Of a stretch of 64,000 nt of DNA, positions 19,197-53,911 are shown piece by piece (within the stretch, counting starts at the first letter, position 1; each line of letters begins with the position of its first letter). Under the pieces are notes generated by a model that worked only from the letters and a program-made list of their open reading frames with translations, was not told where the DNA came from and searched no databases. A program made the position numbers and the translations under genes. The stretch is from positions 793,078 to 857,077 of the forward strand of contig CAWINB010000004.1 of NCBI GenBank assembly GCA_963837465.1, given 5' to 3'. The stretch is from Candidatus Doudnabacteria bacterium. Lineage in GTDB: Bacteria > Patescibacteriota > Doudnabacteria > UBA920.

Positions 19197-20273
19197 ATGA
19201 CAATTGGCATAGAGGCCCAGCGGGCCAATCATCCTCAAAAAACCGGAGTTGAGCATTATGCCAAGCAATTGATTTTGCGCCTGGCCCAAATTGACCGGGT
19301 AAACAATTATACTTTGTATTTAAGGACCAAGCCCGAAAGCTGGTTTTTAAGTTTGCCGCCGAATTTTAAACTTAAGGTTATGCCGTTTCCGCTGTTTTGG
19401 ACGCAGTTGCGCCTGAGCTGGGAAATGTTGGTTGACGCGCCGGAAGTTTTATTTATTCCCGCTTCCGCCCTGCCGCTTCTGCGCCCCAAAAAATCCGTGG
19501 TCACAATCCACGATCTGGGCTGGAAGTTTTACCCGGAGAGTTTCACCTGGTTTATGAGAAATTTTTTGGATTGGTCAACGGGGTTCGCGGCCAAAAATGC
19601 CTCTAAAATTATAGCTGTTTCGGAAAGCACCAGGCGGGATTTGATAAGGTTTTACAAAATTGATCCGGCTAAGGTCAGTGTTGTGCATCATGGGTACGAG
19701 CCAGATTCCAAATTCCAGATTCCAAATTCCAAATTGGATTTGCCGGATAAATATGTTCTGTTTCTATCCACTTTGCAGCCCAGGAAAAATCTGGAAGGGT
19801 TAATTGACGCTTTCAGGCGGCTAAAGGACGAACATCCCGAGCTGCCGCATAAGCTGGTTGTGGCCGGCAGGCCCGGCTGGAAGTTTAAAGCCATCCTGAA
19901 TAAAATCCAGGCCAACAGCGATATTGTGATTTACCTAAACCACGTTTCCGACGCCGAACGTTTTGCCCTGGTAAAACGCGCCGAACTTTTGGTTCTGCCT
20001 TCCTTTTATGAAGGTTTTGGAATGCAGATTTTGGAAGCTTTTGCCCAAGGGGCGCCGGTCGCCGTGTCCGGCGCTTCCAGTATGCCGGAAGTTGCCGGGG
20101 AAGCCGCCGTTTATTTTAACCCCGGCAACATAAATGAAATTGCAGCCGCGATTAAAAGTATTCTGCTGGATAAGTCTTTGGCAGACAACCTGCGGGAAAA
20201 AGGTTTTAGGCGGCTGAAGGATTTTAGCTGGGAAAAATGCGCGGAAGAAACGTTAAAGCTTCTTACGAATTGA
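19197..20273 (+). CDS. GT4 glycosyltransferase
   Basis: GT-B fold; C-terminal EGFGMQILEA motif typical of GT4 (RfaB-like). Confidence 0.8.
   Translation: MTIGIEAQRANHPQKTGVEHYAKQLILRLAQIDRVNNYTLYLRTKPESWFLSLPPNFKLKVMPFPLFWTQLRLSWEMLVDAPEVLFIPASALPLLRPKKSVVTIHDLGWKFYPESFTWFMRNFLDWSTGFAAKNASKIIAVSESTRRDLIRFYKIDPAKVSVVHHGYEPDSKFQIPNSKLDLPDKYVLFLSTLQPRKNLEGLIDAFRRLKDEHPELPHKLVVAGRPGWKFKAILNKIQANSDIVIYLNHVSDAERFALVKRAELLVLPSFYEGFGMQILEAFAQGAPVAVSGASSMPEVAGEAAVYFNPGNINEIAAAIKSILLDKSLADNLREKGFRRLKDFSWEKCAEETLKLLTN
19701..19735. repeat. Tandem repeat (CCAGATTCCAAATT x2 + CCAAATT) inside the GT4 CDS
   Basis: Direct reading; encodes the inter-domain linker PDSKFQIPNSKL. Confidence 0.7.
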
Positions 20274-21883
20274 AAAAGCTGGAAATATACTTAATCTCTA
20301 AAAGCCGTATGACCAAAGATTTTATCGCCAAAATTAAGGAACTGCCGCGTTTGCGGCTGTTGATAATATTGTTCACTGTCTGGCAATATGTAAGCGTGGC
20401 CGGTATGGCCATACTTAACTGGCCGACTTTTTTTATCTGGCTAAACACCGGACTGCTGCTCGGTTTTATTTTGGTGTGCCCGGTTTACGAATCCCTGCTG
20501 CTGCTTATTTTATCCATTCCGTTTTCCGTGGCTTTGCCCAATTCGCGTTTTGACAGCCTGCCGATGTGGCGCGTTTTATACATTGCCTTGTTCCTGGTCT
20601 GGTTCGTTAAAGATAAAAGATTAAAGATAAAGGATATCCACTTCCTGCCCTGGGATAAATATCTGGCCTGGTTTTTGGGCATAGGCCTGCTTTTGGCTTT
20701 TGTATTCGGCAGTTTCCGCCTGGAAGCCGTAAAGCAGGCTTTATTCTGGCTGAATATTTATTGTCTTTATATAGTTTTGATAAACACGCCGCGCGGCAAA
20801 CAGCAAATTTTTGAACTCATCCGTTATGTTATTTGGGCCCTGGTCATAATTATTACTCTGGGTTTTACCCAGCTTATTGGCACCTTTTTAACCAATCTTA
20901 ATACTTTTTGGGTTTATTGGGACGTCAACATAGCCAGGCTTTATTACGGCAGCAGCTTTGCCGGCGTGGCGCTTTATTCCAATTCCTGGTTTTCCTATTC
21001 AGGAGCCACGGAATTGCGGATGTTCTCCATAATGCCGGACTCGCAAAGTTTTGCCTATATTTGTTTTATCGGCCTGTGCATGGGCACGGCTTTAACCCGG
21101 GGCGTGTTTAAGCACGTAAAAAAATGGCTGTGGAGCGGTATCCGTTTCGCCGCTTTGGGCATGATTCTTTCCGGTACGCGCGCGGTTTGGGTAGGCATGG
21201 TAGCGCCGTTTTTGGCCGTGATAATCGCCTATTACAAAAATTTCCAAAGGCATTTGGCCAAAAAATTCATCTGGCCGTTTTTGATTATTTTTATTTTATT
21301 CGCTTTGTCGCCGTTTATTAACGATGGCCTGGCCTACCTGCAAGTCAACGCTTTCCACGAAGATTTTTTGCTCCGCGCCGAAAGCATTTACAATTTAAAC
21401 GAAGCTTCCAACCGCGGCCGCGTTGCCATGTGGAAAAACAGCGGGGAATTTTTCCTGCGCCATCCCTGGGGCGTGGGTTTTAATAATTTTTTGATCTCCT
21501 TTAACAAAAAAACGCCGGGTGAAAGCTATGACCAGCTGGCCAACCAGGTTAACTCCAATTACAACCTGCCGGTAAAGGATATTTCCGCCCACAGCCTGTA
21601 TCTGCAGGTTTTGGTGGAAACCGGAGTGGCGGGTTTTGGCTTCTTCGCGGCTTTTTGGCTTTGCGTCATGAGATATTTTTGGAAGTTCATCAAAGATTAT
21701 AAAAAAACCGAAGACTTTTTGGTTTATTTTGTGGCCCAGGCGCTGCTGATGGTTTTGTGGATTTTAGCCGCGGCAATTTTTGACATTACTTTGCTCAACG
21801 ACAAGGTTTTAATGTTCTTTTTTATTAACCTGGGGCTGGCGGGGTTGATTGTAAAACGATATCACGAGTATGAAGGGGATTAA
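20237..21883 (+). CDS. O-antigen ligase/polymerase-family (Wzy_C) membrane protein; likely true start at 20309
   Basis: Polytopic membrane protein; HSLYLQVLVETG Wzy_C-like motif; first 24 codons overlap the previous gene. Confidence 0.7.
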   Translation: MRGRNVKASYELKKLEIYLISKSRMTKDFIAKIKELPRLRLLIILFTVWQYVSVAGMAILNWPTFFIWLNTGLLLGFILVCPVYESLLLLILSIPFSVALPNSRFDSLPMWRVLYIALFLVWFVKDKRLKIKDIHFLPWDKYLAWFLGIGLLLAFVFGSFRLEAVKQALFWLNIYCLYIVLINTPRGKQQIFELIRYVIWALVIIITLGFTQLIGTFLTNLNTFWVYWDVNIARLYYGSSFAGVALYSNSWFSYSGATELRMFSIMPDSQSFAYICFIGLCMGTALTRGVFKHVKKWLWSGIRFAALGMILSGTRAVWVGMVAPFLAVIIAYYKNFQRHLAKKFIWPFLIIFILFALSPFINDGLAYLQVNAFHEDFLLRAESIYNLNEASNRGRVAMWKNSGEFFLRHPWGVGFNNFLISFNKKTPGESYDQLANQVNSNYNLPVKDISAHSLYLQVLVETGVAGFGFFAAFWLCVMRYFWKFIKDYKKTEDFLVYFVAQALLMVLWILAAAIFDITLLNDKVLMFFFINLGLAGLIVKRYHEYEGD

Positions 21884-21922: not shown

Positions 21923-22969
21923 ATGCCAAAAGTCACCGTCATCCAGGTTATTTATAACAACCGCCGGTTTATCGAGCCGGTATTTTCGGCTGTCTTTAAT
22001 CAAAGTTATAAAGATATTAACGTCGTGGCGGTTATCGCGGGAAACGATGACGGCGGCAAAGAATTATTGGCCGAAAAATTCCCCCAGGTGGAAATTATTG
22101 ACCCGGGCTTTAACATCGGCTTTTCCGCCGGGCATAATTTGGTTTTTGACAAATGCGGCAACCTCACCCCCTCCCTCTCCTCAAAAGGAGAGGGAGCGTC
22201 TGAATTTTTCCAGTTGGTCAACCCGGATATGGTTATGGACCCGACCTACATTGAAAATATTTTAAAAGCTTTTGACGACCCCAAAGTCGGCGCGGCAACG
22301 GGAAAGTTGTATCAGGTTGATCGCGATGCCATCGTAGACACAAGGGGAATCCTTTTGATGCAAAAGGATTCCCCTTGTGTCCTGGACACGACCGGAGTTG
22401 TGATTTCCAAATCCGGACGCGCGAGGGACCGGGGACAACATGAGGTTGATAACGGACAATATGACCGATTAACATCAGTTCAGGCTGTTTCCGCCGCCGG
22501 GGCAATGTATCGGAAGACGGCCTTGCAAGCTGTCAGCTGTCAGCTGTCAGCTGACAGATCTTCCCGCGAGTACTTTGATCAGGACTTTCACAGTTACTGG
22601 GAAGACGTAGATTTAACCTGGAGGATGTCCAACGCCGGCTGGAAAAATATTTTTGTCCCGTCCGCGGTTGCTTATCACGGCAGGGGAGCGGCGGCATCGG
22701 AAAACGGCTACGCCGATGTTCTAGGTTTCATCAGCCACCACAAAAAATTGTCTCCCCGCGTCCGGAAGCTAAACTACCAAAACCACATTTTTATGTACAT
22801 AAAAAACTCGCCCTATTTTTACCCCCATTTTTTTGTCCGGGAATTTTTTATGTTTTTTTATATCCTGTTTTTTGAAACCGGCACTTTAAAAGTTTTACCG
22901 CGAATGTTTAAATTATTGCCAAAGATGTGGATGAAAAGAAAATTAATTCAAAGTTCTGTGTCGCCCTGA
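21923..22969 (+). CDS. GT2 glycosyltransferase
   Basis: TVIQVIYNN...D.D GT-A signature; contains an in-frame hairpin insert at 22171-22196 and a heptamer SSR at 22528. Confidence 0.75.
   Translation: MPKVTVIQVIYNNRRFIEPVFSAVFNQSYKDINVVAVIAGNDDGGKELLAEKFPQVEIIDPGFNIGFSAGHNLVFDKCGNLTPSLSSKGEGASEFFQLVNPDMVMDPTYIENILKAFDDPKVGAATGKLYQVDRDAIVDTRGILLMQKDSPCVLDTTGVVISKSGRARDRGQHEVDNGQYDRLTSVQAVSAAGAMYRKTALQAVSCQLSADRSSREYFDQDFHSYWEDVDLTWRMSNAGWKNIFVPSAVAYHGRGAAASENGYADVLGFISHHKKLSPRVRKLNYQNHIFMYIKNSPYFYPHFFVREFFMFFYILFFETGTLKVLPRMFKLLPKMWMKRKLIQSSVSP
22528..22555. repeat. Heptanucleotide SSR AGCTGTC x3 + AGCTGAC inside the GT2 CDS
   Basis: Direct reading; the unit length is not a multiple of three. 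Confidence 0.8.
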
Positions 22970-23390: not shown

Positions 23391-24368
23391 ATGCCTTTAG
23401 TCAATAAGCAGATTGATTTATCAATCGTCATCCTCTCCTACAAATCCAAATCCCACCTGGAGGTTTTACTGCCGAGTGTTTTCGATAGTTTTGGGGTTGA
23501 TTTTTCAACTCCAAAACTATCGTCCGACGAAGCCTTGGCGAAGTCGGATGGGGATCGGGCGGCCAAGGCTCGCCCCTACACCGCCGAAATAATCATAGTA
23601 GACAACGACTCTCGCGACGGAACCGCGGAATGGATAAAAGCGGAATTCTGTGATTTTGACGGCCGTCAAAATCACAGAATGGTTTCCTTGATCGAGAATT
23701 CCAACAATGGTTTTTCCAAAGGAAATAATCTTGGAATAAAACAGGCCTCCGGCAAATATATTTTGCTGCTTAATCCCGACACCAGGCTTGAGCCCGGAAC
23801 TTTAAAAACTATGCTGGATTTTATGGACAGCCGGCCGGATGTCGGGATTTCCGGATGCAAACTTATTAAAGCCGACGGCAAGCTGGATGTAGCCTGCCGC
23901 AGAAGGTTTCCAAACCCATCCAATAGTTTTAAACGGCTGTTCCTGATGGACCGCATAGACTATAATTATTCCGATATCGATCAAGATAAGGAAATGGAAG
24001 TAGACAGCGTGGTCGGCGCGTTTATGCTTATCCGAAAATTAGCCCTGGATAAAACCGGCCTCTTGGACGAAATTTTTTTTATGTACGGTGAAGATTTGGA
24101 TTTGTGCTGGCGCTGCGAGGAAGCGGGGTTTAAAGTCTGGTATTATCCCAAAACTTTTATCCATCATTACAAAGGCGAGTCCAGCCGCAAAACGCCGTTT
24201 AAATCGTTAAAAGATTTCCATAACGCCATGTGGATTTTTTACAAAAAGCATTACGCTAAAAATTACTTCGTAATTTTTAATTGGCTGGTATGGTTGGGAA
24301 TTTATGCGCGGCTGGCCGTCTTGGTGATTATCAATAAATTCAAAGCCAATCCCAGTGTCAGCAAATAG
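23391..24368 (+). CDS. GT2 glycosyltransferase (rhamnosyltransferase-like) with in-frame palindromic inserts
   Basis: IVILSYKS...IIVDNDSRDGT...GFSKGNN GT2 motifs; extra segment DSFGVDFSTPKLSSDEALAKSDGDRAAKARP. Confidence 0.75.
   Translation: MPLVNKQIDLSIVILSYKSKSHLEVLLPSVFDSFGVDFSTPKLSSDEALAKSDGDRAAKARPYTAEIIIVDNDSRDGTAEWIKAEFCDFDGRQNHRMVSLIENSNNGFSKGNNLGIKQASGKYILLLNPDTRLEPGTLKTMLDFMDSRPDVGISGCKLIKADGKLDVACRRRFPNPSNSFKRLFLMDRIDYNYSDIDQDKEMEVDSVVGAFMLIRKLALDKTGLLDEIFFMYGEDLDLCWRCEEAGFKVWYYPKTFIHHYKGESSRKTPFKSLKDFHNAMWIFYKKHYAKNYFVIFNWLVWLGIYARLAVLVIINKFKANPSVSK
23645..23680. repeat. 36-bp perfect palindrome attctgtgattttgACGGCCGTcaaaatcacagaat, in frame within the GT2 CDS (P3 family)
   Basis: Direct reading; encodes EFCDFDGRQNHRM; related copies at 56846 and 60780 share the ACGGCCGT centre. 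Confidence 0.8.
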
Positions 24369-24406: not shown

Positions 24407-24427
24407 GCCGATAAATCGGCGCGCTAC
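24407..24427. promoter_or_regulatory. P4 motif GCCGATAAATCGGCGCGCTAC upstream of ctpA
   Basis: Identical 21-mer to 738..758. Confidence 0.5.
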
Positions 24428-24492: not shown

Positions 24493-25770
24493 ATGGATTC
24501 GCAACAAAACCAGTCGCAAGAACAAAACCAAAAATCAAAAAAAACAGGCGCTTATTTTATAAAAGGAGTAGCATTTTTGCTTATTATAGTAATCTCCTAT
24601 TCCGTCGGCTACCAAGCCGGGCATAAAGGTTTTATTTTTAATCCCAAAACTTTTAGCGTCATCAACGAAAATAACGCGCCCCAGACCGTGGACTACAACT
24701 TGCTGTGGGACACCATTAAAATTTTAAACACCAAATACATAAACCAGCCCATTGACCAGCAAAAAATTCTTTACGGAGCGGTTTCCGGAGCCGTGGCCGC
24801 GGTGGGCGACCCGTATACGGAATTTTTCGCGCCGCAGGATTTGCAGAACTTTCAAACCCAGCTGGCCGGAAATTTTGACGGCATTGGCGCCGAAGTCGGG
24901 GTTAACTCAAGCGGGAATATAGTTATTATCGCGCCCATAGCCGGCTCGCCCGCGCAAAAGGCCGGAATTTTGGCCGGAGACGTAATTGCCGGGGTCAATG
25001 GACAGTCCACTGCCAGCTGGACCGTGGACCAGGCCGTGGATGCCATTCGCGGGCCAAAAGGCACAACCGTTACTTTAAGCATTATCCGGGCCGGCAAAGA
25101 TAAAGCCTTTGACGTAAAAATTGTCCGCGACACTATTGTAATTAAAAGCGTCAACTGGACTTACAAGACCGTAACCGCCGCCAACGGTCAAAGCGAAACT
25201 ATTGCCATTGTAACCATAAGCGAATTTGGCGGCGACACCACATCCCTGTTTGGCCAGGCGGCCAAGGATATTTTAGCCCATCGCGTAAACGGCATAGTTA
25301 TAGATTTGCGCAACAACCCCGGCGGCTATTTGCAAAGCGCCGTGGATGTGGCTTCTTACTGGGTAAAAGCCGGAGACGTTGTGGTGTCCGAAGACCACAG
25401 CGACGGTACCAGCATAGTTTACAAAGGCGAAGGCAACCCCGAACTGGCCGGCATTAAAACCGAAGTTTTGATAAACGGCGGCACGGCTTCGGCCGCGGAA
25501 ATTCTTTCCGGCGCGCTGCGTGACCACGGTTTTGCCCAGCTTATCGGCCAAAAAAGTTTCGGCAAGGGCAGCGTGCAGGAATTGGATGATTTGCCGGGCG
25601 GCAGCGCCATTAAAGTCACGATTGCCAAATGGATAACTCCGGACGGGATAAACTTAAACCACAACGGTTTGAACCCCGACATTCCGGTCGCCATAACCCA
25701 GGATCAAATCACTGCCGGCAAGGATCCTCAAATGGACGCGGCAATAGCCCAAATTACAAATTCCAAATAA
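24493..25770 (+). CDS. ctpA: Carboxyl-terminal processing protease (S41 family) with PDZ domain
   Basis: PDZ GDVIAGVNG; S41 catalytic region GGTASAAEI and K. Confidence 0.85.
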   Translation: MDSQQNQSQEQNQKSKKTGAYFIKGVAFLLIIVISYSVGYQAGHKGFIFNPKTFSVINENNAPQTVDYNLLWDTIKILNTKYINQPIDQQKILYGAVSGAVAAVGDPYTEFFAPQDLQNFQTQLAGNFDGIGAEVGVNSSGNIVIIAPIAGSPAQKAGILAGDVIAGVNGQSTASWTVDQAVDAIRGPKGTTVTLSIIRAGKDKAFDVKIVRDTIVIKSVNWTYKTVTAANGQSETIAIVTISEFGGDTTSLFGQAAKDILAHRVNGIVIDLRNNPGGYLQSAVDVASYWVKAGDVVVSEDHSDGTSIVYKGEGNPELAGIKTEVLINGGTASAAEILSGALRDHGFAQLIGQKSFGKGSVQELDDLPGGSAIKVTIAKWITPDGINLNHNGLNPDIPVAITQDQITAGKDPQMDAAIAQITNSK

Positions 25771-25846
25771 CAAATTTCAAACAAAATCCCAAAAGTCAAA
25801 ATTTAATTATTTGACATTTATTGGAAATTTGAAATTGGAAATTTGA
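25750..25846. repeat. CAAATTN heptamer run (x5) and its inverse complement (GGAAATTTGAAATTGGAAATTTGA) flanking a TTGACA box
   Basis: Direct reading at the ctpA-alaS junction. Confidence 0.6.
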
Positions 25847-27801
25847 TATTATTTAAAATGCCCAACATTACCGCTCAGGAACTCCGAACCAAATATCTTG
25901 AATTTTTTAAATCCAAAGGCCACGCTATCATCCCTTCGGCGTCTTTGGTGCCGGAAAACGACGCTACAACTTTGTTCACAGGCAGTGGTATGCAGCCAAT
26001 GGTACCTTATTTGCTGGGCGCGCGGCACGCCAAAGGCGCCAGGCTGGCCGACTCGCAAAAATGTTTCCGTTCCCAGGACATAGAAGAGGTCGGCGATAAC
26101 CGCCACACGACTTTTTTTGAGATGCTCGGCAACTGGTCGCTGGGCGATTATTTTAAACAGGAGCAGATTCCCTGGATGTTTGAGTTTCTAACCGGCGAGG
26201 TCGGCCTTGACCCAAAAAATTTGTACGTTACCGTTTTTCGCGGCAAGCAAGATATAGGCGTGGCGCGCGATGAGGAATCGGCAACTATTTGGGAAAGCCT
26301 GTTTATGGGAGCCGGTCTGGACGCAAAAATTGTGGATTTTCCGGAAAGAGACGGTTTGCAAAACGGCAGGATTTTTTATTATGACGAAAGCAAAAACTGG
26401 TGGTCGCGGGTCGGCGTAACGGCCAATATGCCGGTTGGGGAACCCGGCGGGCCTGACTCGGAAATGTTCTGGGATTACGGGGCGCATTTGCTAATCCATG
26501 AAAAATCTCCATACAAAGACCGGCCTTGCCATGTTAATTGCGATTGCGGGCGCTTTGTGGAAATCGGCAATAATGTGTTTATGCAGTACGTTAAAACCCA
26601 AACAGGGTTTGAAAAACTGCAGCAAAAAAATGTGGATTTTGGCGGGGGACTGGAAAGAATCCTGGCGGCGGCCAACGGCCAGCAGTCGGTTTTTGATACC
26701 GACATTTTTGACCCGATGTTCCAGGTCCTGGAGCTGGACCAGGAAATAATGACCAACGACGAAGTCCGTAAAGCGCGGATTATTTTGGACCATGTCCGCG
26801 CGGCCGTATTTATTGTCGACGACGGCATTGAGCCGTCCAACAAGGACCGTGGTTATGTGCTTCGCCGTTTGCTTAGGCGCGCCATGGTTATGGGGCGTTT
26901 GTTGAATTTAAAATTGCACTGGCTGGAGGCATTAGTCGGAAAAGTTATAGCCACCTACGCCCAAGCCTATCCCGATTTGGTGGAAAATTCGGAAAATATT
27001 TTTGAGGTTATAAAAAATGAGCAGGAGAAGTTTGAGGGAACGCTGGAAAAGGGGTTGAAGGAATTTGAGAAGCTAGTGAGGATGCCATCCGATGTAGGGG
27101 CCGGGCTTGCCCGCCCGCTTTCTGATGACGGGCGGCTAAAGCCAGCCCTTACAGAATCATTGATAAGCGGAAAAGATGCTTTTGACCTTTATCAAACTTA
27201 CGGTTTTCCCTGGGAACTTACCAAAGAACTGGCCGAACAATCCGGACAAAAAATAGACCACGCGGAATTTGAATCCGAATTTAAAAAACACCAGGAACTT
27301 TCCCGCACCGCGTCCGCCGGGCAGTTTAAAGGCGGTTTGCAGTCGCGCTCGGATAAAATCGTGCGGCTCCATACCGCGACTCACTTGATGAACGCGGCGC
27401 TCCGCCAGGTGCTTGGCGACAACGTTTGGCAAAAGGGGAGTAATATTACGGAAGAAAGAACCAGGTTTGATTTTACGCATAATAAAAAAATGACGCCGGA
27501 AGAAATCCTGTCCGTGGAAGCTTTGGTCAACGACTGGATAGCGCGCGACTTAAAGGTAAAAAAAGAAATTATGCCCTACGAACAGGCTCGCCAGCTTGAT
27601 GCCATTGGCGTGTTCGGTGAAAAATACCCGGACACCGTGTCTATATATACGGTTTACGATGAAAAATCAGGTGAAATAATAAGCCGCGAATTCTGCGGCG
27701 GCCCGCACGTGGAGCATACGGGAGTAATCGGCAAGTTTAAGATACAAAAAGAAGAAGCCTCATCTGCCGGAGTAAGAAGAATTAAAGCAGTTATTAGTTA
27801 G
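25843..27801 (+). CDS. alaS: Alanine--tRNA ligase, short form lacking the C-terminal C-Ala/DHHA1 domain; start may be Met at 25858
   Basis: Class II catalytic core (FTGSGMQP, RHTTFFEMLGNWS), editing-domain HxxxH and CGGPHV; ends after the editing domain at 652 aa. Confidence 0.85.
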   Translation: MILFKMPNITAQELRTKYLEFFKSKGHAIIPSASLVPENDATTLFTGSGMQPMVPYLLGARHAKGARLADSQKCFRSQDIEEVGDNRHTTFFEMLGNWSLGDYFKQEQIPWMFEFLTGEVGLDPKNLYVTVFRGKQDIGVARDEESATIWESLFMGAGLDAKIVDFPERDGLQNGRIFYYDESKNWWSRVGVTANMPVGEPGGPDSEMFWDYGAHLLIHEKSPYKDRPCHVNCDCGRFVEIGNNVFMQYVKTQTGFEKLQQKNVDFGGGLERILAAANGQQSVFDTDIFDPMFQVLELDQEIMTNDEVRKARIILDHVRAAVFIVDDGIEPSNKDRGYVLRRLLRRAMVMGRLLNLKLHWLEALVGKVIATYAQAYPDLVENSENIFEVIKNEQEKFEGTLEKGLKEFEKLVRMPSDVGAGLARPLSDDGRLKPALTESLISGKDAFDLYQTYGFPWELTKELAEQSGQKIDHAEFESEFKKHQELSRTASAGQFKGGLQSRSDKIVRLHTATHLMNAALRQVLGDNVWQKGSNITEERTRFDFTHNKKMTPEEILSVEALVNDWIARDLKVKKEIMPYEQARQLDAIGVFGEKYPDTVSIYTVYDEKSGEIISREFCGGPHVEHTGVIGKFKIQKEEASSAGVRRIKAVIS

Positions 27802-29365: not shown

Positions 29366-29434
29366 TTGACGCTCAAAATCAGCCGTATTACAATGGTTTT
29401 GAATAAGGAGTCAGGAATTATGAATTATGGATGG

Positions 29435-29469
29435 GAATTCCTAATTCCTAATTCCTAATTCCTAATTCC
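29435..29469. repeat. Heptamer tandem repeat (G/T)AATTCC x5 ending 5 nt before the start codon
   Basis: gaattcc taattcc taattcc taattcc taattcc, then agctaATG. Confidence 0.85.
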
Positions 29470-31604: not shown

Positions 31605-31606
31605 AG

Positions 31607-31687
31607 TTTACGAAGTACGAATATTTACGAACTTACAAAAAGGTTCGCTTATCGTTCGTACGTTCGTAAATATTCGTACTTCGTAAA
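31607..31687. repeat. P1 palindromic element copy 2 (perfect 26-bp stem)
   Basis: tttacgaagtacgaatatttacgaac...gttcgtaaatattcgtacttcgtaaa. Confidence 0.7.
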
Positions 31688-31693
31688 ATATAT

Positions 31694-31810: not shown

Positions 31811-31911
31811 AATTGACAAGATTGACATAATTTAAAAAATTGACAAAATTAAAGCTGTGTCCTAATTATGTCAATTATGTCAATTTTATTTAATTTTGTT
31901 CAATAAACTTT
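31811..31911 (+). promoter_or_regulatory. Promoter/leader cassette A (TTGACA boxes, inverted TGTCAAT repeats, conserved leader ending at the rpsM ATG)
   Basis: ~95-nt near-identity to 62514..62606. Confidence 0.55.
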
Positions 31912-32301: not shown

Positions 32302-32302
32302 C

Positions 32303-32384: not shown

Positions 32385-32404
32385 TTCTGTAAACTCTATT
32401 ATTT

Positions 32405-32880: not shown

Positions 32881-32960
32881 AGTTAAAAGTTATCAAGTTG
32901 CAAGTTATAAAGTAACCGCAACTCATACTTGATAACTTTCTACTTTTAACTTTATAACTA
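32881..32960 (+). promoter_or_regulatory. Nested inverted repeats in the rpsK-rpsD intergenic region (structured leader)
   Basis: aaaagttatcaag/cttgataactttt, gttaaaagt/acttttaac, agttataaagt/actttataact. Confidence 0.4.
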
Positions 32961-33573: not shown

Positions 33574-33584
33574 TTAATAATAAT

Positions 33585-33647
33585 ATCCTTTATCCTTTAT
33601 CTTTAATCTTTTACCGGTTAAAGATTAAGGATTAAAGATAAAGGATT
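33585..33647. repeat. Heptamer run (ATCCTTT ATCCTTT ATCTTTA ATCTTTT) that is also the left arm of a palindrome around ACCGGT
   Basis: Direct reading in the rpsD-rpoA intergenic region. Confidence 0.6.
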
Positions 33648-34594: not shown

Positions 34595-34602
34595 GTAACG
34601 GC

Positions 34603-34672
34603 TAATCAGTAAATCAGCTAATCAGTAATCAGTACTGATATGCTGACCAGCTGATTCGCTGACCAGCTGACA
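34603..34672. repeat. Tandem repeats (TAATCAG-like heptamers, then GCTGACCAGCTGA x2) between rpoA and rplQ
   Basis: Direct reading. Confidence 0.55.
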
Positions 34673-39684: not shown

Positions 39685-40854
39685 ATGATGACAAATTTCC
39701 AATTTCCAGTTTCCAATTTCAAAATCGCTTTGGCCCACGATTCGTTTACCCAGGACGGGGGAGCGGAAAGAGTGATGGAGGGTTTGCATGAGCTGTTTCC
39801 CCAAGCCCCTGTTTTTACTTTGGTGTTTGACCCAAAATTCAGGGAAAAATACAAAGATTGGGACATCCGCACTTCCAAATTGCAGACTTTATACCTGTCT
39901 TTGGGCAAGCTCCAGTACCTTTTGCCGCTTATTCCGTACGGAGTGGATTCCCTGGATTTTTCCGGTTTTGACGTTATAATTTCTTCCAGCTCCGGGTTCA
40001 TTAAAAATTTACGCCGTCCGAAAAACGCCTTGCATATAAATTACTGCCATACCCCGGCCCGGTTTTTGTGGAGCGATGCCAATTACGTAAACGAAGAAGT
40101 CAATCCGGTCTTTAGACCCGCGGCAAAATTTATACTAAACCGGATAAAGCTTTGGGATTTAAAGGGGGCAAAGCGGGTGGATTATTTTATCGCTAATTCA
40201 CACGAAGTCCAAAACAGGATTTCGCGATATTATCAGCGTACTAGTACGCTGATACATCCGTTTGTCGATATGGATTTTTGGAAAAACGTTCAAACCAGGC
40301 AAAATTATTTTTTGCTCGCCGGCAGGCTTCAGGCGCATAAAAATAATGAACTGATTATCCAGATTTTTAATGAACTTGACCTGCCGCTGCGTGTGGCGGG
40401 TACGGGGCGGCAGGAAAATTATTTAAAATCCATCGCCAAACCGAATATTAAGTTCTTAGGGCGCGTCAGCGACGAACAACTGCGGCAGGAATACAGCGGA
40501 GCTCTCGGCTTTATTTACCCCCAACTGGAAGATTTCGGCCTAATGCCCCTGGAAGCCGCCGCCTGCGGCACGGCCACCCTGGCTTACGGCAAAGGCGGAG
40601 CTTTGGAAACGGTGACTTCTGGGGTTACAGGAGAGTTTTTTGGTCCCGACGCAGTTAGCCCATTTATGGGCTGTGGAACTGAACAAACAGCCGATAAATT
40701 GGCTAACTACAAGGACCAAATCAAACAGCTCATCCTAAACTGGCAACCGCAAAAATATAAACCCGACCAACTGCAATCCCAGGCCGAAAAATTCAGCAAG
40801 GAAAAATTTAAGGAAAATATTTTAGAATTTATTAATTCATTAAAAATGAAATGA
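39685..40854 (+). CDS. GT4 glycosyltransferase (carries several dispersed repeat motifs in frame)
   Basis: GT-B fold; EDFGLMPLEAAACG motif; heptamer run at its 5' end, the 22-bp palindrome at 40232 and the P4-variant at 40688. Confidence 0.8.
   Translation: MMTNFQFPVSNFKIALAHDSFTQDGGAERVMEGLHELFPQAPVFTLVFDPKFREKYKDWDIRTSKLQTLYLSLGKLQYLLPLIPYGVDSLDFSGFDVIISSSSGFIKNLRRPKNALHINYCHTPARFLWSDANYVNEEVNPVFRPAAKFILNRIKLWDLKGAKRVDYFIANSHEVQNRISRYYQRTSTLIHPFVDMDFWKNVQTRQNYFLLAGRLQAHKNNELIIQIFNELDLPLRVAGTGRQENYLKSIAKPNIKFLGRVSDEQLRQEYSGALGFIYPQLEDFGLMPLEAAACGTATLAYGKGGALETVTSGVTGEFFGPDAVSPFMGCGTEQTADKLANYKDQIKQLILNWQPQKYKPDQLQSQAEKFSKEKFKENILEFINSLKMK
40232..40253. repeat. 22-bp perfect palindrome ATCAGCGTACTAGTACGCTGAT inside the GT4 CDS (P5 family)
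   Basis: Direct reading; encodes YQRTSTLIH; core shared with 49711..49728 and 49604..49629. Confidence 0.8.
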
Positions 40855-41246: not shown

Positions 41247-42361
41247 AAATCGCCGTTGATTTAAGGAGTCTTTCCAGCGGGCAGTTTACCGGGGTGGAAA
41301 ATTACGCGCTTAATTTATTGGACGCGCTTTTGGCTTTGGACAAAAAAAACAGTTATATTTTATTTTACAATTCTTTGGGCAACGGCAAGACTTTGGATTT
41401 GAACTTTATAAATTCCACAACCAAGCTGACCCGCTATCCCAACCGCCTGTTGAATTTGGCTTTAATGGCCAGGGCCACCACCCTGGAAAAAGTCATCGGC
41501 GATTTTGACTGCCTGTTTATGCCCAATTTAAACCAGTTTAACATAGCTCCTTCGGCCAGGCTGGCGCTGACCGTGCACGACTTGTCGCCGGTGGTCACGC
41601 CGGAATTTTACGATGTTAAAAGAAGGATGTGGCACAAATTTTTAAATTACAAACGGGCCTTTGGGCGGGCCAATGTAATTTTTGCCGTGTCAGAATACAC
41701 CAAAAACGATCTTATCCGGATTTTTGGCATCAGTCCGGAAAAAATTAAAGTCGCTTACCCGGGAATTAACAACAACGACTTCCGTCCGGATATTGGCATC
41801 TCCCGCCTCCGCCAGGTCCGTAACATTTACGGCTTGCCGGGAGAATTTATTTTATTTTTAAACACCATTGAACCCAGAAAAAACCTGGCGGGACTGCTAA
41901 GCGCCTTTGAGCGTACCGCCGGAGAATCCAGCTTGGTGATTATGGGCCGCCGGGGCTGGAAATACAAAGCTGTCATGCAAAGCATCAAAAACAGCAAAAA
42001 ATCTGCTAAAATAAAGTACATAGGATACGCCGACGAAAAAGACAAGCCGGCTATTATTAAGCTGGCCAAAATGCTGGTCTACCCCAGTTTTTACGAAGGT
42101 TTTGGCTTTGGGCCGCTGGAAGCTATGGCTGTGGGCACGCCGGTTATTGTAAGCCAGGTTACGGCGTTGCCCGAGGTTTCCGGGGACGCGGCCCTGCTTG
42201 TAAACCCCTATGATACCGGCAGTATTACAACAGCTGTTGAGGCGCTGCTGAAGGACGAAAACTTAAGGCGGCGGCTGGTCGCCAAAGGTCTGGAAAAAGT
42301 AAAGCAATACAGCTGGCAAAAAACGGCGCGGGAAGTTTTAAGCGGATTAAATAGTATATAG
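41243..42361 (+). CDS. GT4 glycosyltransferase
   Basis: GT-B fold; [14 protein letters not shown] motif. Confidence 0.8.
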
Positions 42362-42400
42362 AACCTATTTTAAAAATTAGGGGACAAATTTGTGGAAACG

Positions 42401-42489
42401 GATAAACACGGATTTAAAACAGGTGAACACGGATTACTGCATTCTGTACGTGTTAATCTGTTTGCCCGCTCCGTGTTCATCCGTGTTAT
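42401..42489. promoter_or_regulatory. Nested inverted repeats of AACACGGAT (two direct copies, then two inverted copies)
   Basis: ataaacacggat...gaacacggat...ccgtgttc atccgtgttat. Confidence 0.45.
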
Positions 42490-42546
42490 GTTATATATAA
42501 ACTGTCGGAATATATTTAAAACGAGTTCTTAATTTTATTTAATTCA

Positions 42547-43671
42547 ATGATTATCGGAATTGACGCCCGGATGCTGGGCAGGAGGCACGGAGGAATAGGC
42601 AGATATGTTTTGGAATTATCCAAAAGTCTTTTGGAAATTGACCGCGTCAATCATTACGATATTTTTGTAAACTTAAAGACATCAGATGCGGCCGATGTTG
42701 ACCAATTAAGGAAGTTTGAAAACGCCACCGTTGTTCCGGCCAACATCCGCCATTATTCCCTGGGCGAACAGCTGAGTTTTGCCCGCTTGCTTAATAAGTA
42801 TCCGCTGGACATTGTCCATTTTCCCAATTTTAACGTGGCCCTAAATTACCAAAAGCCGTTCGTGGTTACCATTCACGATATGGTGCACCATAAAATAGGC
42901 GGCGCCAAAAAAAGCCACTTCCCGCATTTTTTGGCTTACAAAAAAGTTATTGAAAGCGCGGCGGAAAAATCAAAAAAAATTATTACCGTATCCCAGGCCG
43001 CGAAAAAAGATATTGCTTCGTTTTTGCGAATCCCGCCGAATAAAATCGCCGTGACTTATGAAGGTTCAAAGCTGAATACCAAAGTTAGTTCGGAACAGGT
43101 AGCGGAAATAAAAAAAAGGTACTTTTTGGACAAACCTTATTTTTTGTTTGTGGGAGTTTTGGAACGTAAAAAAAATCTGGTCAACCTGACCCGCGGTTTT
43201 GACCAATTTTTTCAAAAGTACAACATCGACATGGATTTAGTCGTAGTCGGTAAAACCGATCCACACTATCCGGAAATTAAGCATGAGGCTTTGGATATAA
43301 AACACAACGACCGTCTTGTCTTTACCGGGCAGGTGGAAGATTCCGAGCTGACCGCGCTTTACAAAGGCGCTTACGCTTTTGCCTCGGCTTCGGTCCACGA
43401 GGGTTTTGGCCTGCCGGGAGTGGAAGCTTTGGGTTTTGGCCTGCCGCTGTTAGCCAGCAACAGCGATGTCTTTAATGAAATTTACGACAACGCGGCCGTT
43501 TATTTTAACCCTTTTGATCCGGAAGACATAGCTGAAAAAATGCACCTGCTGGCCCAGGACAAGCAGTTTTATCAACAGTTGCGGGGAAAAAGCCTGCAAA
43601 GGAGCCTGCTGTTTGACTGGCGTAAGACCGCGGAAGAGACGTTGGAGGTGTATAGGATTTGCGTCTTTTAA
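42547..43671 (+). CDS. GT4 glycosyltransferase
   Basis: GT-B fold; EGFGLPGVEALGFG motif. Confidence 0.8.
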   Translation: MIIGIDARMLGRRHGGIGRYVLELSKSLLEIDRVNHYDIFVNLKTSDAADVDQLRKFENATVVPANIRHYSLGEQLSFARLLNKYPLDIVHFPNFNVALNYQKPFVVTIHDMVHHKIGGAKKSHFPHFLAYKKVIESAAEKSKKIITVSQAAKKDIASFLRIPPNKIAVTYEGSKLNTKVSSEQVAEIKKRYFLDKPYFLFVGVLERKKNLVNLTRGFDQFFQKYNIDMDLVVVGKTDPHYPEIKHEALDIKHNDRLVFTGQVEDSELTALYKGAYAFASASVHEGFGLPGVEALGFGLPLLASNSDVFNEIYDNAAVYFNPFDPEDIAEKMHLLAQDKQFYQQLRGKSLQRSLLFDWRKTAEETLEVYRICVF

Positions 43672-45906: not shown

Positions 45907-47408
45907 ACCTGGATGATATAAAAAAAATATATTTTGTGGGTATTGGCGGCATAGCCATGTCCGCGGCCGCTGGTATTGCCGGACAGCGGGGGTTTGAGGT
46001 AACCGGCAGCGACGCGGCAGGAATTTATCCGCCGGCCAAAGATGCGCTGGATGCTTTGGATATCCCTTACTTTACCGGCTACAGCCCGGAGCACCCAAAG
46101 CGGGCGGGCGCCGATTTGTTTATTTTATCCGCGGGGGAAGGGCCGGAAAATCCCGAAGTCGGATATATTTTGGAAAACGGCCTTCCGCGCTCGGGCTTTC
46201 CGGAACTGCTTTATGAGCTGGCCAAAGACCGTCTGCGTCTGGTCGTGGCCGGCACGCACGGTAAATCCACCACAACCGGCCTTTTGGGGCACCTGTTAAA
46301 AAATCTGGACGACAGTTCTTTTTTGGCCGGCGGGGTCCTGCAAAACTACGACAGTAATTTTTATCTGGGCGACGGCAATTATTTTGTGTTTGAGGGCGAT
46401 GAGTACAAATCGGAGTTTGACGACCCGACGCCAAAGTTTCAATACTACAGGGCCGATATTTCGGTTTTGACCAACCTGGAATACGATCATCCCGATATGT
46501 TTGAAAATTTCGAGGTCCTGCGGCAGGAATTCCGTTTGCTGGTTGAAAAAATGCCGGAAGACGGGCTGGTTGTTTACAACGCGGATGACGCGGCCCTGAC
46601 CCAGCTTGTCCATGAATCCAATGTCAGCAGCGTCAGTTTTGGCATAGACAATCCCGCGGATTTTAAGGCGGAAGACATAAATTACTCCTCTGATTTTACG
46701 ACAATTGAAATAATAAACAAATTTTCCAAAGCCATTTCCAGTAAACTGCTCGGGCAAACCGAACAATACAAAATCCAGCTGCCGGGGAAAATCAATGTTT
46801 ATAATTCTTTGGCGGCCATTGCCACGCTAAGGTCTTTGGGTTTTGCGCGGGAGCAAATTGCCCTGGACCTTTTAACTTATAGGGGAATAAAAAGGCGTTT
46901 TGAAGTCGTGGGGGTAAAAAATGGCATTACCATCATCGACGATTACGCGCACCATCCCACCGCGGTAAAAGAAACCCTGGAAGCGGCCCGTCTCCGGTAT
47001 TTCCCTCAAACATCAGGCATCAAACATCAGACATCAAAATTATGGGCTATTTTTGAACCCCATACCTTTAGCCGCACCAAAGCCACATTGGATGACCTTG
47101 CGAAAAGTTTTGACGCGGCCGATGAGGTTTTGATATCGGAAATTTACCCGGCCAGGGAAAAAGCATCAGCCGGTACTGTAACATCTTCGCAAGTTGTCAA
47201 TGCTGTAACGCGCTCTGTAGGGGCTGCGCTCGCGCGCCCGCTCCCCGATGACGGGCGGCCAAGGCCAGCCCCCGCAATACGTTTGGTTTCGGATAAAACC
47301 CAAGCCCTAACCATCCTGAAATCCGAAGCCAAACCCGGCGACGTAATCATCATAATGGCCGTAGGCAGCTTTAACCGACTGGCTTATGAGTTGAAAGAAA
47401 TATTATAA
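45903..47408 (+). CDS. murC: UDP-N-acetylmuramate--L-alanine ligase; start at the ATGA overlap with the previous gene
   Basis: KIYFVGIGGIAMS...GTHGKSTTTGLL Mur-ligase motifs; in-frame tandem repeat insert at 47007-47039. Confidence 0.8.
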   Translation: MNLDDIKKIYFVGIGGIAMSAAAGIAGQRGFEVTGSDAAGIYPPAKDALDALDIPYFTGYSPEHPKRAGADLFILSAGEGPENPEVGYILENGLPRSGFPELLYELAKDRLRLVVAGTHGKSTTTGLLGHLLKNLDDSSFLAGGVLQNYDSNFYLGDGNYFVFEGDEYKSEFDDPTPKFQYYRADISVLTNLEYDHPDMFENFEVLRQEFRLLVEKMPEDGLVVYNADDAALTQLVHESNVSSVSFGIDNPADFKAEDINYSSDFTTIEIINKFSKAISSKLLGQTEQYKIQLPGKINVYNSLAAIATLRSLGFAREQIALDLLTYRGIKRRFEVVGVKNGITIIDDYAHHPTAVKETLEAARLRYFPQTSGIKHQTSKLWAIFEPHTFSRTKATLDDLAKSFDAADEVLISEIYPAREKASAGTVTSSQVVNAVTRSVGAALARPLPDDGRPRPAPAIRLVSDKTQALTILKSEAKPGDVIIIMAVGSFNRLAYELKEIL

Positions 47409-50958: not shown

Positions 50959-51113
50959 TACAATAGTTCTGAGTTTTGGCATTTTAACAGCCGATAAATC
51001 GGCTAACTACATCGGGCTAATCCACTTTACAAACCCTTCTTTCGGACAGCTTTTATTTATGAGTGGATTCTGTTATAATATCAACATGTAATTTTAATTA
51101 GATTATCCAGATT

Positions 51114-51153
51114 GCCGATAAATACCGTAGGACGACACAAGTCGGCGCGCTAC
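51114..51153. promoter_or_regulatory. P4 motif split by a 19-nt insert (GCCGATAAAT[accgtaggacgacacaagt]CGGCGCGCTAC) in the secA leader
   Basis: Alignment to 738..758 and 24407..24427; preceded by TGTTATAAT extended -10 at 51071-51079. Confidence 0.5.
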
Positions 51154-51156
51154 ACT

Positions 51157-53905
51157 ATGTCATTTTTATCCAAAATTTTCAGCGGACAAAACAATTCCCT
51201 CGCCAAATTTTCCGGGGAGCTGGACGCGGTTAATGGTTTTAAGGAAGATGTGGAAAAACTTTCCCAGGAAGAGATTAAAGCGGAAATTTCAAATTTCAAA
51301 TTGGAAATTTCAAAGCTCGAATCGGACAGGGAAATTTTCGAGCAGCTGCAAAAAATCGCGTCGCGGGTTTTTGCCTTGACCAGGGAAGCGGCCAAAAGAA
51401 GCATCGGGCAGGAGCACTACGATGTGCAGCTGGCCGGAGGTTTTGTTTTGGCCGAAGGCAAGATCGCGGAAATGAAGACCGGCGAGGGGAAAACCTTAAC
51501 CGCTACTTTGCCTTTGGCTCTGTACGCTTTAGCCAGCAAAGGCGCGCACCTGGTTACGGTTAACGATTACCTGGCCCGCTGGCAGGCCAGCTTAATGGGT
51601 CCGGTTTACCGCTACCTTGGTTTGAGCGTGGCTTCCATCCAGCACGAAGCCAGTTTTTTATATGATCCTGACTACAAACCCGAGCAGGAAGAAATAGATA
51701 AGCTGGAAGGTGAAACCCAGGGGCTGATTATGGACGTTAAGCATATGCGCCCCATTTCCAGGCGGGAAGCTTACGCCGCGGAGATAACTTACGGCACCAA
51801 CAACGAATACGGTTTTGATTACCTGCGCGACAATATGGCCCAGCACCAAAACCAAATTACCCAGCGCGGACTTTTGTTTGCCATTGTGGACGAGGTAGAC
51901 AGCATATTGATAGATGAAGCGCGCACGCCGCTCATTATCAGCGCTCCGGACACCGAGCCGACCAGCAAGTATTACGACTTCGCGCGTTTGGTGGACGGCC
52001 TGGATGAAGCTACGGATTACACCGTGGATGAAAAACACAAAGCCGCCAGCTTAACCGACTCCGGCATCAACAAAATAGAAGCGTTGCTGAAAATCCCGAA
52101 TATTTATGATACCAGCAAAGGCGTTACAACCATCCACCATATTGAACAGGCTTTGCGCTCAAGAACTTTGTTTAAAAAGGACCGCGACTATGTGGTGCGC
52201 GAGGGTGAAATAATCATCGTCGATGAATTTACCGGCAGGCTGATGTTCGGCAGGCGCTACAGCGAAGGTTTGCACCAGGCCATAGAAGCCAAGGAAAATG
52301 TTAAAATTCAGCAGGAAAGCAAAACACTGGCTACAATAACTTTCCAAAACCTTTTTCGGCTTTATAAAAGACTTTCCGGCATGACGGGCACGGCCAAAAC
52401 CGAAGAAGAAGAATTTTTTAAAATTTATCAGCTGACCGTGCGGCAAATCCCGACCCACCGCCCCATGGTGCGCGAGGATTTGTCGGACTTGGTTTATAAA
52501 ACCGAAGACGCCAAATTCAGCGCCATAGCGCGCGAGGTCAAACAGCGGAACCAAAAGGGCCAGCCTGTGCTTATTGGCACCGTCAGCATCGCCAAAAACG
52601 AAATGCTGGCCGAGGTTTTAAAAAAAGAAGGGCTGAAGTTTGAAATTTTAAACGCCAAAAACCACGAACGCGAAGCGCACATTATTTCCCAGGCCGGACG
52701 CTTTGGGCAAATTACTCTGGCCACCAACATTGCCGGACGCGGCGTGGATATTTTACTTGGCGGCAATCCTGTTGATGATGAAGAAGCCGAAAAAGTCAAG
52801 CAGGCCGGCGGTTTGCATATTTTGGGCACGGAAAGGCACGAGTCGCGCCGCATAGACAACCAGTTGCGCGGCCGCGCCGGCCGCCAGGGCGACCCGGGAA
52901 GTTCGCAATTTTTTGTTTCCATGGAAGACGACCTGATGCGTTTGTTCGGCGGCGAGCGCATGAAAAATTTAATGACCAGGCTGGGCTTGCCGGACGAGCA
53001 GCCGATTGAGGCGGGGATGGTTTCCAAATCCATCGAAAGCGCGCAAAAAAGAATAGAAGGCCTGAACTTTGACACCAGAAAACACGTATTGGAATTTGAT
53101 GATGTGCTCAACCATCAAAGAAACGTAATTTACAAAAGGCGGCGGGGTTATCTGGCGGGGAACAATACCAAAGATGAAGATGGCAATGACATCAGCCTTT
53201 CCAATGAAATTTTAGAGATGATTCGCCAGGAAATCGGCGGCATTGTAAGCTACAACCTCAACCTGCTGGATGAATACGGCGGCAAAAAAGAGGACTGGGA
53301 CAATTTATTTAAAAATGCCAACATAATTATTCCGGTAACTCCGGAGCTGGTAAAACAGATTAAGGAAGAAACCGTTAACGCCGCTGATCGTGAATTCGCC
53401 GTCAGCGATGCCTTGTACAACGCGGCTAAAAAATTATGGGACCAAAAAGAACAGGAAATGGGCAAAGATGTGTTTGAAGGCGCGCAAAGGTTTATTGCCC
53501 TGCAGTCACTGGACCAGTTATGGATGGAGCATTTGGATACATATGGACCATTTGCGCGACTCGGTAAGGCTGCGCGGTTACGGCCAGCGGGACCCGCTGG
53601 TGGAGTATAAAAAAGAAGGTCACGGTATGTTCCAGCTGCTGCTTAAGGAGATTAGCAAACAAATTGTTTCCAGTATTTTTCACATCACAGCGCAAAGAGC
53701 TCCGCTTCCTTCGGTAATACCGGCCAATTTGGTAACAAATTTATCCGATGGCTCCTCGGGCCAAAATTCGTCGCCTGCCGAAAATATCGGCCGCAACGAG
53801 CCGTGCCCCTGCGGCTCCGGAAAAAAGTGGAAGAAATGCGGAATGTTAAACACGCCGGAGCATTTAGCAAAGATAAAAACAAAATCCCTAATCCCTAATC
53901 CCTAA
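51157..53905 (+). CDS. secA: Preprotein translocase ATPase SecA, +1 frameshift near 53542 (probably a sequencing indel), SEC-C zinc motif at the C-terminus
   Basis: DEAD motor domains; ORF 51112..53610 ends ...WMEHLDTY, then frame 2 continues MDHLRDSVRLRGYGQRDPLVEYKKEG...CPCGSGKKWKKCG. Confidence 0.85.
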
Positions 53906-53911
53906 TCCCTA
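53884..53911. repeat. Heptamer tandem repeat ATCCCTA x4 ending 4 nt before a start codon
   Basis: atccctaatccctaatccctaatcccta, then cttt ATG. Confidence 0.85.

Follow-up and report, generated by a model that had tools for sequence, protein, structure and literature searches.

The 64-kb stretch of a Candidatus Doudnabacteria (Candidate Phyla Radiation, CPR/Patescibacteria) genome analysed here, called the window throughout, holds a tightly packed glycosyltransferase operon, the genes alaS, murC and secA, and a ribosomal protein (r-protein) operon, and scattered through it, both between and within genes, are short tandem arrays of heptanucleotides. Arrays were detected with Tandem Repeats Finder and with a self-shift scan over periods 2 to 21, for which dinucleotide-preserving shuffles served as the null model, and about 16 period-7 sites were found across the window (Table 1). 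An initial annotation had drawn attention to eleven such sites, and Tandem Repeats Finder reports a period-7 or period-14 array at every one of them; to these we add arrays at 1-32, 20607-20636 and 60052-60078, and inverted partner arrays at 33618-33647, 34642-34671 and 32881-32913/32933-32959. Among periods 2 to 21, only period 7 gives exact self-shift runs of 12 bases or more, of which there are four. At a mismatch-tolerant score of at least 14, the window contains six period-7 arrays, versus 0.0 per dinucleotide shuffle, and two period-14 arrays, versus 0.03; no period other than 7 is strongly over-represented.

Between genes, the arrays of the window are commonly arranged as inverted pairs. 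Well-paired hairpins are predicted in the 5' leader of a conserved hypothetical gene (g588) and at three junctions of the r-protein operon, with folding z-scores of -4.6 to -6.8. The rpsD-rpoA hairpin (33584-33647) has 31-nt arms that are 87% complementary, and the leader hairpin joins a degenerate 5' arm, GGAATTATGAATTATGG, to a 3' arm of (AATTCCT)x4.9, which ends 5 nt ahead of the ATG at 29475. The pair between ctp and alaS (25749-25781 with 25820-25850) forms a weak hairpin (z = -1.1), and the array at 53883-53911, which includes the secA stop codon (53903) and ends 4 nt ahead of an ATG at 53916, has no partner. Placement of the stop codon of the upstream gene inside an array recurs in three cases (ctp, 25768; secA, 53903; M1 peptidase, 60064), and the unit family of the last of these arrays builds hairpins at rps junctions of many relatives. 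Almost all junctions within the rpsM-rpsI operon hold a hairpin, unlike those of the glycosyltransferase operon. None of the heptamer hairpins was flagged as an intrinsic terminator (GC-rich stem plus T-run), and a canonical GC-stem and T-run terminator stands at the end of the r-protein operon (36200-36225); the hairpins are therefore internal to the transcription unit. No Rfam family matched any of them.

Table 1. Repeat arrays, hairpins and associated features of the window (coordinates are those of the 64-kb stretch; CDS, coding sequence; dG, folding energy; z, folding z-score).
Feature	Coordinates	Strand	Context
Period-7 or period-14 arrays called by Tandem Repeats Finder at the eleven sites listed initially	19701-19735, 22528-22557, 25750-25781, 25820-25850, 29436-29469, 33584-33613, 34603-34634 (period 7-8), 39694-39720, 47006-47038, 51284-51314, 53883-53911		
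AAAGTTG x4.4, at window edge	1..32	+	Within 5'-truncated rmlD-like CDS
TACGAA-family hairpin (7-8-nt units), ~80 nt, 4 copies	1473..1552, 31605-31690, 32302-32390 (degenerate), 35021-35103	+ (1473..1552)	ATTTACGAAGTACGAA…TTCGTACTTCGTAAA
GCCGATAAATCGGCGCGCTAC motif sites	737-757, 24407-24427, 40653-40711, 50986-51011, ~51120-51160, ~60875-60900		
CCAGATT/CCAAATT x5, in frame	19701..19735	+	GT4 glycosyltransferase CDS 19197-20273; z = +0.6, no structure signal
TTAAAGA/TAAAAGA x4, in frame	20607..20636	+	Wzy_C/O-antigen-ligase-like CDS 20237-21883
AGCTGTC x4.3, in frame	22528..22557	+	Loop of GT2 CDS 21923-22969; peptide QAVSCQLSAD
CAAATTN x4.6, ctp 3' end array	25749..25781	+	Spans ctp stop codon 25768-25770; inverted partner is 25820-25850
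ATTGGAA/ATTTGAA, alaS upstream array	25820..25850	+	Last base 7 nt before alaS ATG at 25858
Promoter-like TTGACG-17-TACAAT	29366..29394	+	5' of leader hairpin; conserved in L001, L003, L008
5'-leader hairpin of g588 (gene 29475-31241)	29401..29469	+	dG = -28 kcal/mol, z = -4.6
rpsK-rpsD intercistronic hairpin	32881..32959	+	AGTTAAA-like x4.4 and inverted TAACTTT-like x3.7; z = -5.1
rpsD-rpoA intercistronic hairpin	33584..33647	+	(TATCCTT x4.3) - ACCGG - (TTAAAGA/TTAAGGA x4.3); z = -5.8
rpoA-rplQ intercistronic hairpin	34601..34671	+	TAATCAG-like x4.3 with GCTGACCA-like x3.8; dG = -34.8 kcal/mol, z = -6.8
AATTTCC x3.9, in frame	39694..39720	+	Residues 4-12 of GT4 gene 39685-40854
14-nt (2x7) unit x2.4 in murC	47006..47038	+	8-10 residue insertion vs solved MurC structures
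AAATTTC x4.4, in frame	51284..51314	+	Near secA N-terminus; peptide EISNFKLEISK
AATCCCT x4.1, solo array	53883..53911	+	Codes secA end …KSLIPNP*; predicted unstructured, -0.9 kcal/mol
ACAATTA x3.9	60052..60078	+	Spans M1 peptidase stop codon 60064-60066

The distribution of the arrays was followed in 42 genome loci encoding relatives of the window RpoA, of which 29 are closer and 13 the most distant. All are metagenome-assembled genomes (MAGs) of Candidatus Doudnabacteria/Patescibacteria, some with records mislabelled Saccharibacteria, and all keep the gene order ctp-alaS-pgi-g588-infA-rpsM-rpsK-rpsD-rpoA-rplQ-rplM-rpsI. The window and the 29 closer loci make up the close set (553 kb), and the 13 others the distant set (202 kb; RpoA about 52-69% identical); as the boundary between the two was chosen after a first scan had been seen, independent metagenome loci serve as the replicate (40 loci added by an rpoA scan, of which 34 non-redundant loci, 186 kb, were used). 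In the close set, 64 period-7 arrays were counted against 1.2 in shuffles, with 10, 20 and 12 arrays at periods 8, 9 and 10 and at most 8 at any remaining period, and the metagenome set returned 32 period-7 arrays and at most 7 at any other period; no period-7 array was detected in the 13 distant loci. By their period spectra against dinucleotide shuffles, the arrays have the character of long simple sequence repeats (SSRs) of the 5-11-nt class, being longer than composition predicts and dominated by heptamers. The arrays are a heritable trait of one Candidatus Doudnabacteria subclade, in which period 7 predominates. An assembly artefact was considered and rejected, as independent MAGs by the dozen contain such arrays and a separate short-read assembly has them too. 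That assembly derives from run ERR10755945, the only match in a same-strain contig lookup by exact-protein matches for rpoA, infA and rpsM, from which two Logan short-read contigs cover window positions 32887-42574 (L043) and 31877-32914 (L044); L043 is 99.97% identical to the window, and in it the arrays at 33584, 34601 and 39694 have exactly the same bases.

Most arrays of the close set are intergenic (44/64, 69%), although 88% of bases lie in open reading frames (ORFs), and 30 of these 44 (68%) have a reverse-complement array within 110 nt, as against none of 44 in a reversed-sequence control and 3 of the 20 coding arrays. Paired arrays produce stems of about 24-35 bp. Among the co-directional spacers of the closer relatives, 46 have long stems (median 24 bp), which start a median of 12 nt past the stop codon and end 12.5 nt ahead of the next start; the arms are periodic in 30 of these 46 stems, compared to one of 46 when arms are shuffled, with 18 at period 7, five at period 9, three each at periods 8 and 10, and one at period 11. 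Arrays and stems end 4-12 nt 5' of start codons, in genomes where few genes have a Shine-Dalgarno-like motif: in the window 6 of 55 do, and in either clade 12-14% of the conserved genes. The exception is rpoA, for which 24 of the 29 closer relatives show a strong GGAGG.

What is retained between genomes is more often the paired arrangement than the unit. At one and the same junction, most closer relatives carry an inverted array pair whose units differ, as between rpsK and rpsD, where the two arms consist of AGTTAAA and ACTTTTA in the window, ACAATTA and TTAATCG in L005, AAGATTT and TAAATCT in L009, and ATCCTTA and AAGGATG in L012. Two relatives (L002 and L024) have the same unit as the window at the rpsD-rpoA junction. 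Spacers of the distant relatives measure 3-40 nt and are hairpin-free, in contrast to 70-160 nt with hairpins in the array-rich subclade. In the g588 leader, the exact unit AATTCCT is present at 4.3-4.9 copies, together with the degenerate 5' arm, in the window, L001 and L003, which are three species with only about 78% nucleotide identity in rpoA. Growth in place can be seen in the rpoA-rplQ spacer, where TTACYAR stands twice in L012 and three times in L009 and L051. A few unit families (AACAATT, AAATCTT, AAAGGAT and AATTAGG) recur within and between genomes, and in the metagenome loci AACAATT is especially frequent at rps junctions. When units were clustered with up to one mismatch allowed, the outcome was uninformative, because A/T-rich heptamers then all join; it is the sharing of exact units that is informative.

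In all genomes examined, the coding arrays preserve the reading frame, and they lie in variable loops or at protein termini. In the loop of the GT2 gene that carries 26 perfectly periodic bases from 22528, the orthologues in L009 and L020 also have heptamer arrays, built on units other than that of the window. A second GT2 gene encodes WLQ(A/T)TSYKLQAI through (GCTACAA)n in L011, L019 and L022, and the array at 39694 forms an N-terminal extension that is missing from orthologues, whose alignments begin at residues 2-14. The array of alaS, (AGAATCA)n, is translated as ESRIKNQESG within a hypervariable linker and is kept in six genomes. It had been suggested that repeat-bearing coding segments might align as insertions relative to orthologues, and this is so for murC, by 8-10 residues against solved structures; in secA, the array region is followed by an insertion of 7 residues relative to Bacillus subtilis SecA, or exactly 21 nt, the length of three units. 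The coding arrays are old and stable, and evolve as ordinary sequence, including those in the essential genes secA, murC and alaS. As to alaS itself (25858-27801), it encodes a short alanyl-tRNA synthetase (~595-650 aa) of the PRK01584 type, in which the hypervariable linker insertion follows …KGLKEFEKL and differs in length and sequence in almost every relative.

Two pairs of near-identical strains allow array lengths to be compared directly. Lengths are unchanged between the window and L043, and between L012 and L054, which are 99.83% identical, with 11 single-nucleotide differences and no insertions or deletions in 6.4 kb; the comparison of copy number across strains that the initial annotation had proposed shows no polymorphism in either pair. 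Further pairs obtained by scanning metagenomes with rpoA were identical or near-identical and free of insertions and deletions, save for one that was too diverged (about 84-88% identity) to be informative, and a gapped DNA pattern for the array at 29436 found no match among metagenome contigs. Were the arrays to vary at finer scales, they could be used as strain markers. Three of the four ends of L043 and L044 fall inside periodic arrays; the arrays may fragment de Bruijn assemblies or mark population heterogeneity. As this matches the assembly problems described by MacGregor, it is probable that such repeats fragment MAGs.

The arrays were initially likened to the short tandemly repeated repetitive (STRR) elements of cyanobacteria. 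Mazel et al. are said to have defined these in 1990 as STRR1 (CCCCAGT), STRR2 (TTGGTCA) and STRR3 (CAACAGT). Tandem dimers of these three heptamers number zero in 755 kb, in which TAACTGA, the unit of a further heptamer family, occurs as 87 single copies and never in tandem. The likeness to STRR sequences holds in the arrangement of the repeats and fails in their sequence: both are tandem 7-nt units, dispersed, mainly intergenic, and often folded into hairpins between co-transcribed genes (PMC2670836), but the present ones belong to a CPR/Patescibacteria genome of about 1 Mb, their units are A/T-rich and very diverse, and inverted pairs are the rule among them and stand at almost every r-protein operon junction. 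In cyanobacteria, 7-bp STRR hairpins between genes, such as hupS-hupL, have been proposed to influence transcript stability or translational coupling, their function is unproven, and they are tolerated in structured or coding regions (PMC2670836). Nor are heptamer arrays confined to heterocystous cyanobacteria, as had been stated initially, since Beggiatoaceae, many cyanobacteria and some Bacteroidetes have TAACTGA arrays 5' of their start codons (MacGregor 2015, PMC4679880). The Beggiatoaceae arrays share many traits with those described here, namely two to six heptamer copies within a few nucleotides of the start, presence in r-protein operons, overlap with upstream stop codons, occasional location at the periphery of ORFs, Shine-Dalgarno-poor genomes, and short-read contigs that end at the repeats (PMC4679880). 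They differ in having a single dominant unit in one orientation, as direct repeats with only one indirect repeat (PMC4679880), where the window and its relatives have many units, mostly as inverted pairs that form stems. According to the summary in PMC4679880, a survey by Mrazek et al. (2007) of long SSRs whose units measure 5-11 nt likewise describes repeats longer than expected, of sporadic phylogeny across scattered phyla and of proposed slippage origin, among which heptanucleotides are the commonest class, with the rationale that about 7 nt is the length of polymerase contact. The survey predates CPR genomes, and its summary there makes no mention of junction hairpin pairs. The arrays are of the STRR or heptamer long-SSR kind, but lie outside the sequence-defined STRR1-3 and TAACTGA families, none of whose units is ever tandem in the 755 kb. 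Our literature search found no report of such arrays in CPR/Patescibacteria.

Taken together, we consider it somewhat probable that these are STRR-type heptamer arrays generated by slippage and kept as intercistronic stem-loops that act at the RNA level. Slipped-strand (template-slippage) events, each a step of 7 nt, would create the arrays and alter their length in place, as the rpoA-rplQ spacer illustrates in part. In coding DNA, only stop-free units whose total length keeps the frame would survive, in variable loops or termini, as slowly decaying insertions; in intergenic DNA, arrays would accumulate, mostly as an array together with its reverse complement. Each pair would fold in the transcript into a stem-loop of 24-35 bp, between the cistrons of rpsM-rpsK-rpsD-rpoA-rplQ-rplM-rpsI or at the mRNA 5' end. 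Such stem-loops may serve as operon punctuation, through protection of mRNA ends and/or processing by a double-strand-specific RNase, and may insulate the start region of the following gene, which is unstructured and lacks a Shine-Dalgarno motif; the periodicity of the arms would leave the stem paired whatever 7-nt slip occurred. This RNA-level role in stability, processing or insulation, which we infer, is the one established for the repetitive extragenic palindromic (REP) elements of E. coli and proposed for STRR hairpins (PMC2670836). A role related to translation, which would extend to the solo single-stranded arrays, is plausible, because Shine-Dalgarno motifs are rare here as they are where TAACTGA arrays have been described (PMC4679880).

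Several observations sit uneasily with stem-loops selected in RNA. The sense and antisense strands show no asymmetry in folding energy, and mismatches within stems, read on the sense strand, comprise 19 G:T and 28 A:C; as there is no G:T excess, the structure could be a feature of the DNA, or functionless. In the rpsD-rpoA hairpins, the one family that can be aligned, covariation is weak, being seen in 2 of 11 pairs. About a third of the intergenic arrays, such as 53883-53911, lack a partner and are predicted to be unstructured, and a hairpin role leaves these unexplained. As regards origin, exact two-copy duplications of 7 nt and those of 8 nt show the same 2.4-fold enrichment; the preference for heptamers therefore arises in expansion or retention rather than in nucleation, and a slippage step of 7 nt is not alone sufficient to account for their dominance. 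Further, identical units recur at non-orthologous sites (36 pairs, against 10 +/- 4.6 under a composition-matched null), and the array at 20607-20636, within the Wzy_C CDS, is identical at 27 of 30 positions to the hairpin arm at 33618-33647, with 23 nt (20614-20636) exactly matching the reverse complement of the other rpsD-rpoA arm. The recurrence of units and this copy, which a CDS shares with a hairpin arm, are both hints of copying or of sequence-specific selection.

The foremost alternative to selected stem-loops is that the arrays are a neutral by-product, in which a lineage-specific bias of replication or repair makes 7-nt duplications and quasi-palindromic (template-switch) copies that have no function and persist under weak selection, in spacers between genes and in loops of proteins. 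The great diversity of units, the 20 of 64 arrays that lie in coding DNA, the missing sense-strand G:U signature and weak covariation are all in keeping with such a process, as are the in-place growth of an array in L009 relative to L012 and the restriction of the trait to one subclade, with its absence from another that has tight spacers. Neutrality is less readily squared with the g588 leader, the exact unit and copy number of which three species have in common although their coding identity is about 78%, with stems set consistently about 12 nt from stop and start codons, with the recurrence of identical units beyond expectation, or with the occupancy of nearly every junction of a highly expressed r-protein operon and not of the glycosyltransferase operon. 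We regard a purely neutral origin as possible but unlikely.

Doubtful, in our estimation, is the idea, put forward for the TAACTGA repeats of Beggiatoaceae, that the arrays are multimeric sites at which a protein of regulatory or translation-related function binds RNA or DNA. It would account for arrays ending 4-12 nt 5' of start codons in a genome poor in Shine-Dalgarno motifs, the context described in PMC4679880, for the predicted single-strandedness of the solo array at 53883, and for the few unit families that recur within and between genomes. Yet the units number dozens and share no core other than A/T richness, their similarity at one mismatch or fewer is only about 2 standard deviations above the composition-matched null, arrays also occur within CDSs, and most intergenic arrays are base-paired with a partner and thus not free as single strands. 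More speculative than a conventional binding site is a dedicated, period-specific system of the array-rich subclade, comprising either a factor that recognises 7-nt periodic duplexes whatever their sequence or hairpin-templated repeat writing, through which operon junctions and start regions would acquire inverted arrays and keep them. If true, this would amount to a new form of post-transcriptional operon punctuation in Shine-Dalgarno-poor bacteria of reduced genome, convergent with cyanobacteria and Beggiatoaceae.

It is improbable, and in our view slightly more so than a dedicated system, that the hairpins are miniature mobile palindromes of the REP or MITE (miniature inverted-repeat transposable element) type that have invaded intergenic junctions. 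REP elements and the BIMEs (bacterial interspersed mosaic elements) are imperfect intercistronic palindromes of enterobacteria, which fold in mRNA and stabilise upstream segments, and the present hairpins are likewise imperfect palindromes between the cistrons of operons. Invasion might explain why spacers of 3-40 nt in distant relatives correspond to hairpin-bearing spacers of 70-160 nt in the array-rich subclade, and mobility could also underlie the four similar copies of the TACGAA hairpin, the near-identity of array 20607-20636 to arm 33618-33647, and the TTGACA and TAATTAG 9-mer hairpins found at different junctions in different genomes. REPs, however, constitute one conserved sequence family per genome and are mobilised by RAYT transposases, whereas most heptamer hairpins are internally periodic and, within the part of a genome covered (64 kb for the window), sequence-unique, show neither target-site duplications nor distinct termini, include an array that grew by a single unit where it stood, and are linked to no transposase, although transposases were not searched genome-wide. 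Finally, slipped-strand phase variation of glycosyltransferase and other genes, which the initial annotation had raised, has in its favour a unit length not divisible by three, three arrays in glycosyltransferase or O-antigen genes and the 26 perfectly periodic bases at 22528, but is unsupported and very improbable, since the arrays have merely 3-5 copies, mostly imperfect, occur also in secA, murC and alaS, are in frame in every genome with some orthologous arrays conserved as peptide, and do not differ in copy number within either strain pair, and a frame-switch of dispensable surface genes, as expected of contingency loci, was not seen.

Other repeats are found alongside the heptamer arrays in the window. 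The TACGAA hairpins, whose arms are made of 7-8-nt TACGAAN units, lie after genes and between cistrons, and the best copy has a dG of -43 kcal/mol (z = -9.5); CGAA-type arrays are also present in L001, L003, L004 and L025, and with four copies within 64 kb the TACGAA hairpins look like a REP-like multi-copy family. Period-9 inverted arrays, AATTGACAA / TTGTCAATT, occupy 31811-31885, 62515-62591 and 61006-61044, often around a CTGCAG loop, and recur at many junctions of L004, L008-L010, L013, L017, L025, L041 and L042. In the window, they precede a conserved leader of ~42 nt, which lies upstream of rpsM (31873-31914) and, with 98% identity, of gene 62607 (62568-62609), and, with their repeated -35-like TTGACA boxes, may be promoter or operator arrays. 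The ~21-nt motif GCCGATAAATCGGCGCGCTAC and its variants, each a small hairpin followed by GCTAC, are intergenic save for one within a CDS. A dispersed inverted repeat, TGTCCCATCCCGGA(A/T)TTTTT…, at 9361-9490 and 54535-54580 is 91% identical between its copies and forms very stable hairpins, and perfect palindromes, whose arms measure 18-22 nt and whose loops have 0-3 nt, lie at 10750-10794, 60780-60821, 22337-22381 and 23645-23680, two of them within called CDSs (GT2 genes), which is unusual for such length.

Two further observations concern the genes around the arrays. Relative to L043, two extra T residues (~36975 and ~36982) split a SIMPL-domain gene into ORFs 36758-37018 and 36991-37536, and an apparent additional T at ~53541 splits secA, the C-terminus of which (…HMDHLRDSVRLRGYGQRDPL…CPCGSGKKWKKC…) runs on in another frame to 53905; all three are probable single-base insertion errors of the window assembly. 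A bacterial class A RNase P RNA is encoded on the minus strand at 37676-38086 (101.7 bits against a gathering score of 100), with insertions that are large in comparison to the model (88 nt in place of 23), and contains no STRR-like heptamer insert of the sort found in cyanobacteria.

Dispersed heptamer arrays are here extended to a new phylum, in which their regular inverted-pair architecture and near-complete occupancy of r-protein operon junctions are the notable features. As gene regulation and mRNA metabolism in CPR/Patescibacteria are almost unexplored, stem-loops specific to one clade would provide a concrete and testable element of both. Array-rich and array-free Doudnabacteria, moreover, constitute a natural comparison through which to approach the 7-nt preference of bacterial long SSRs, and the purpose of STRR sequences.

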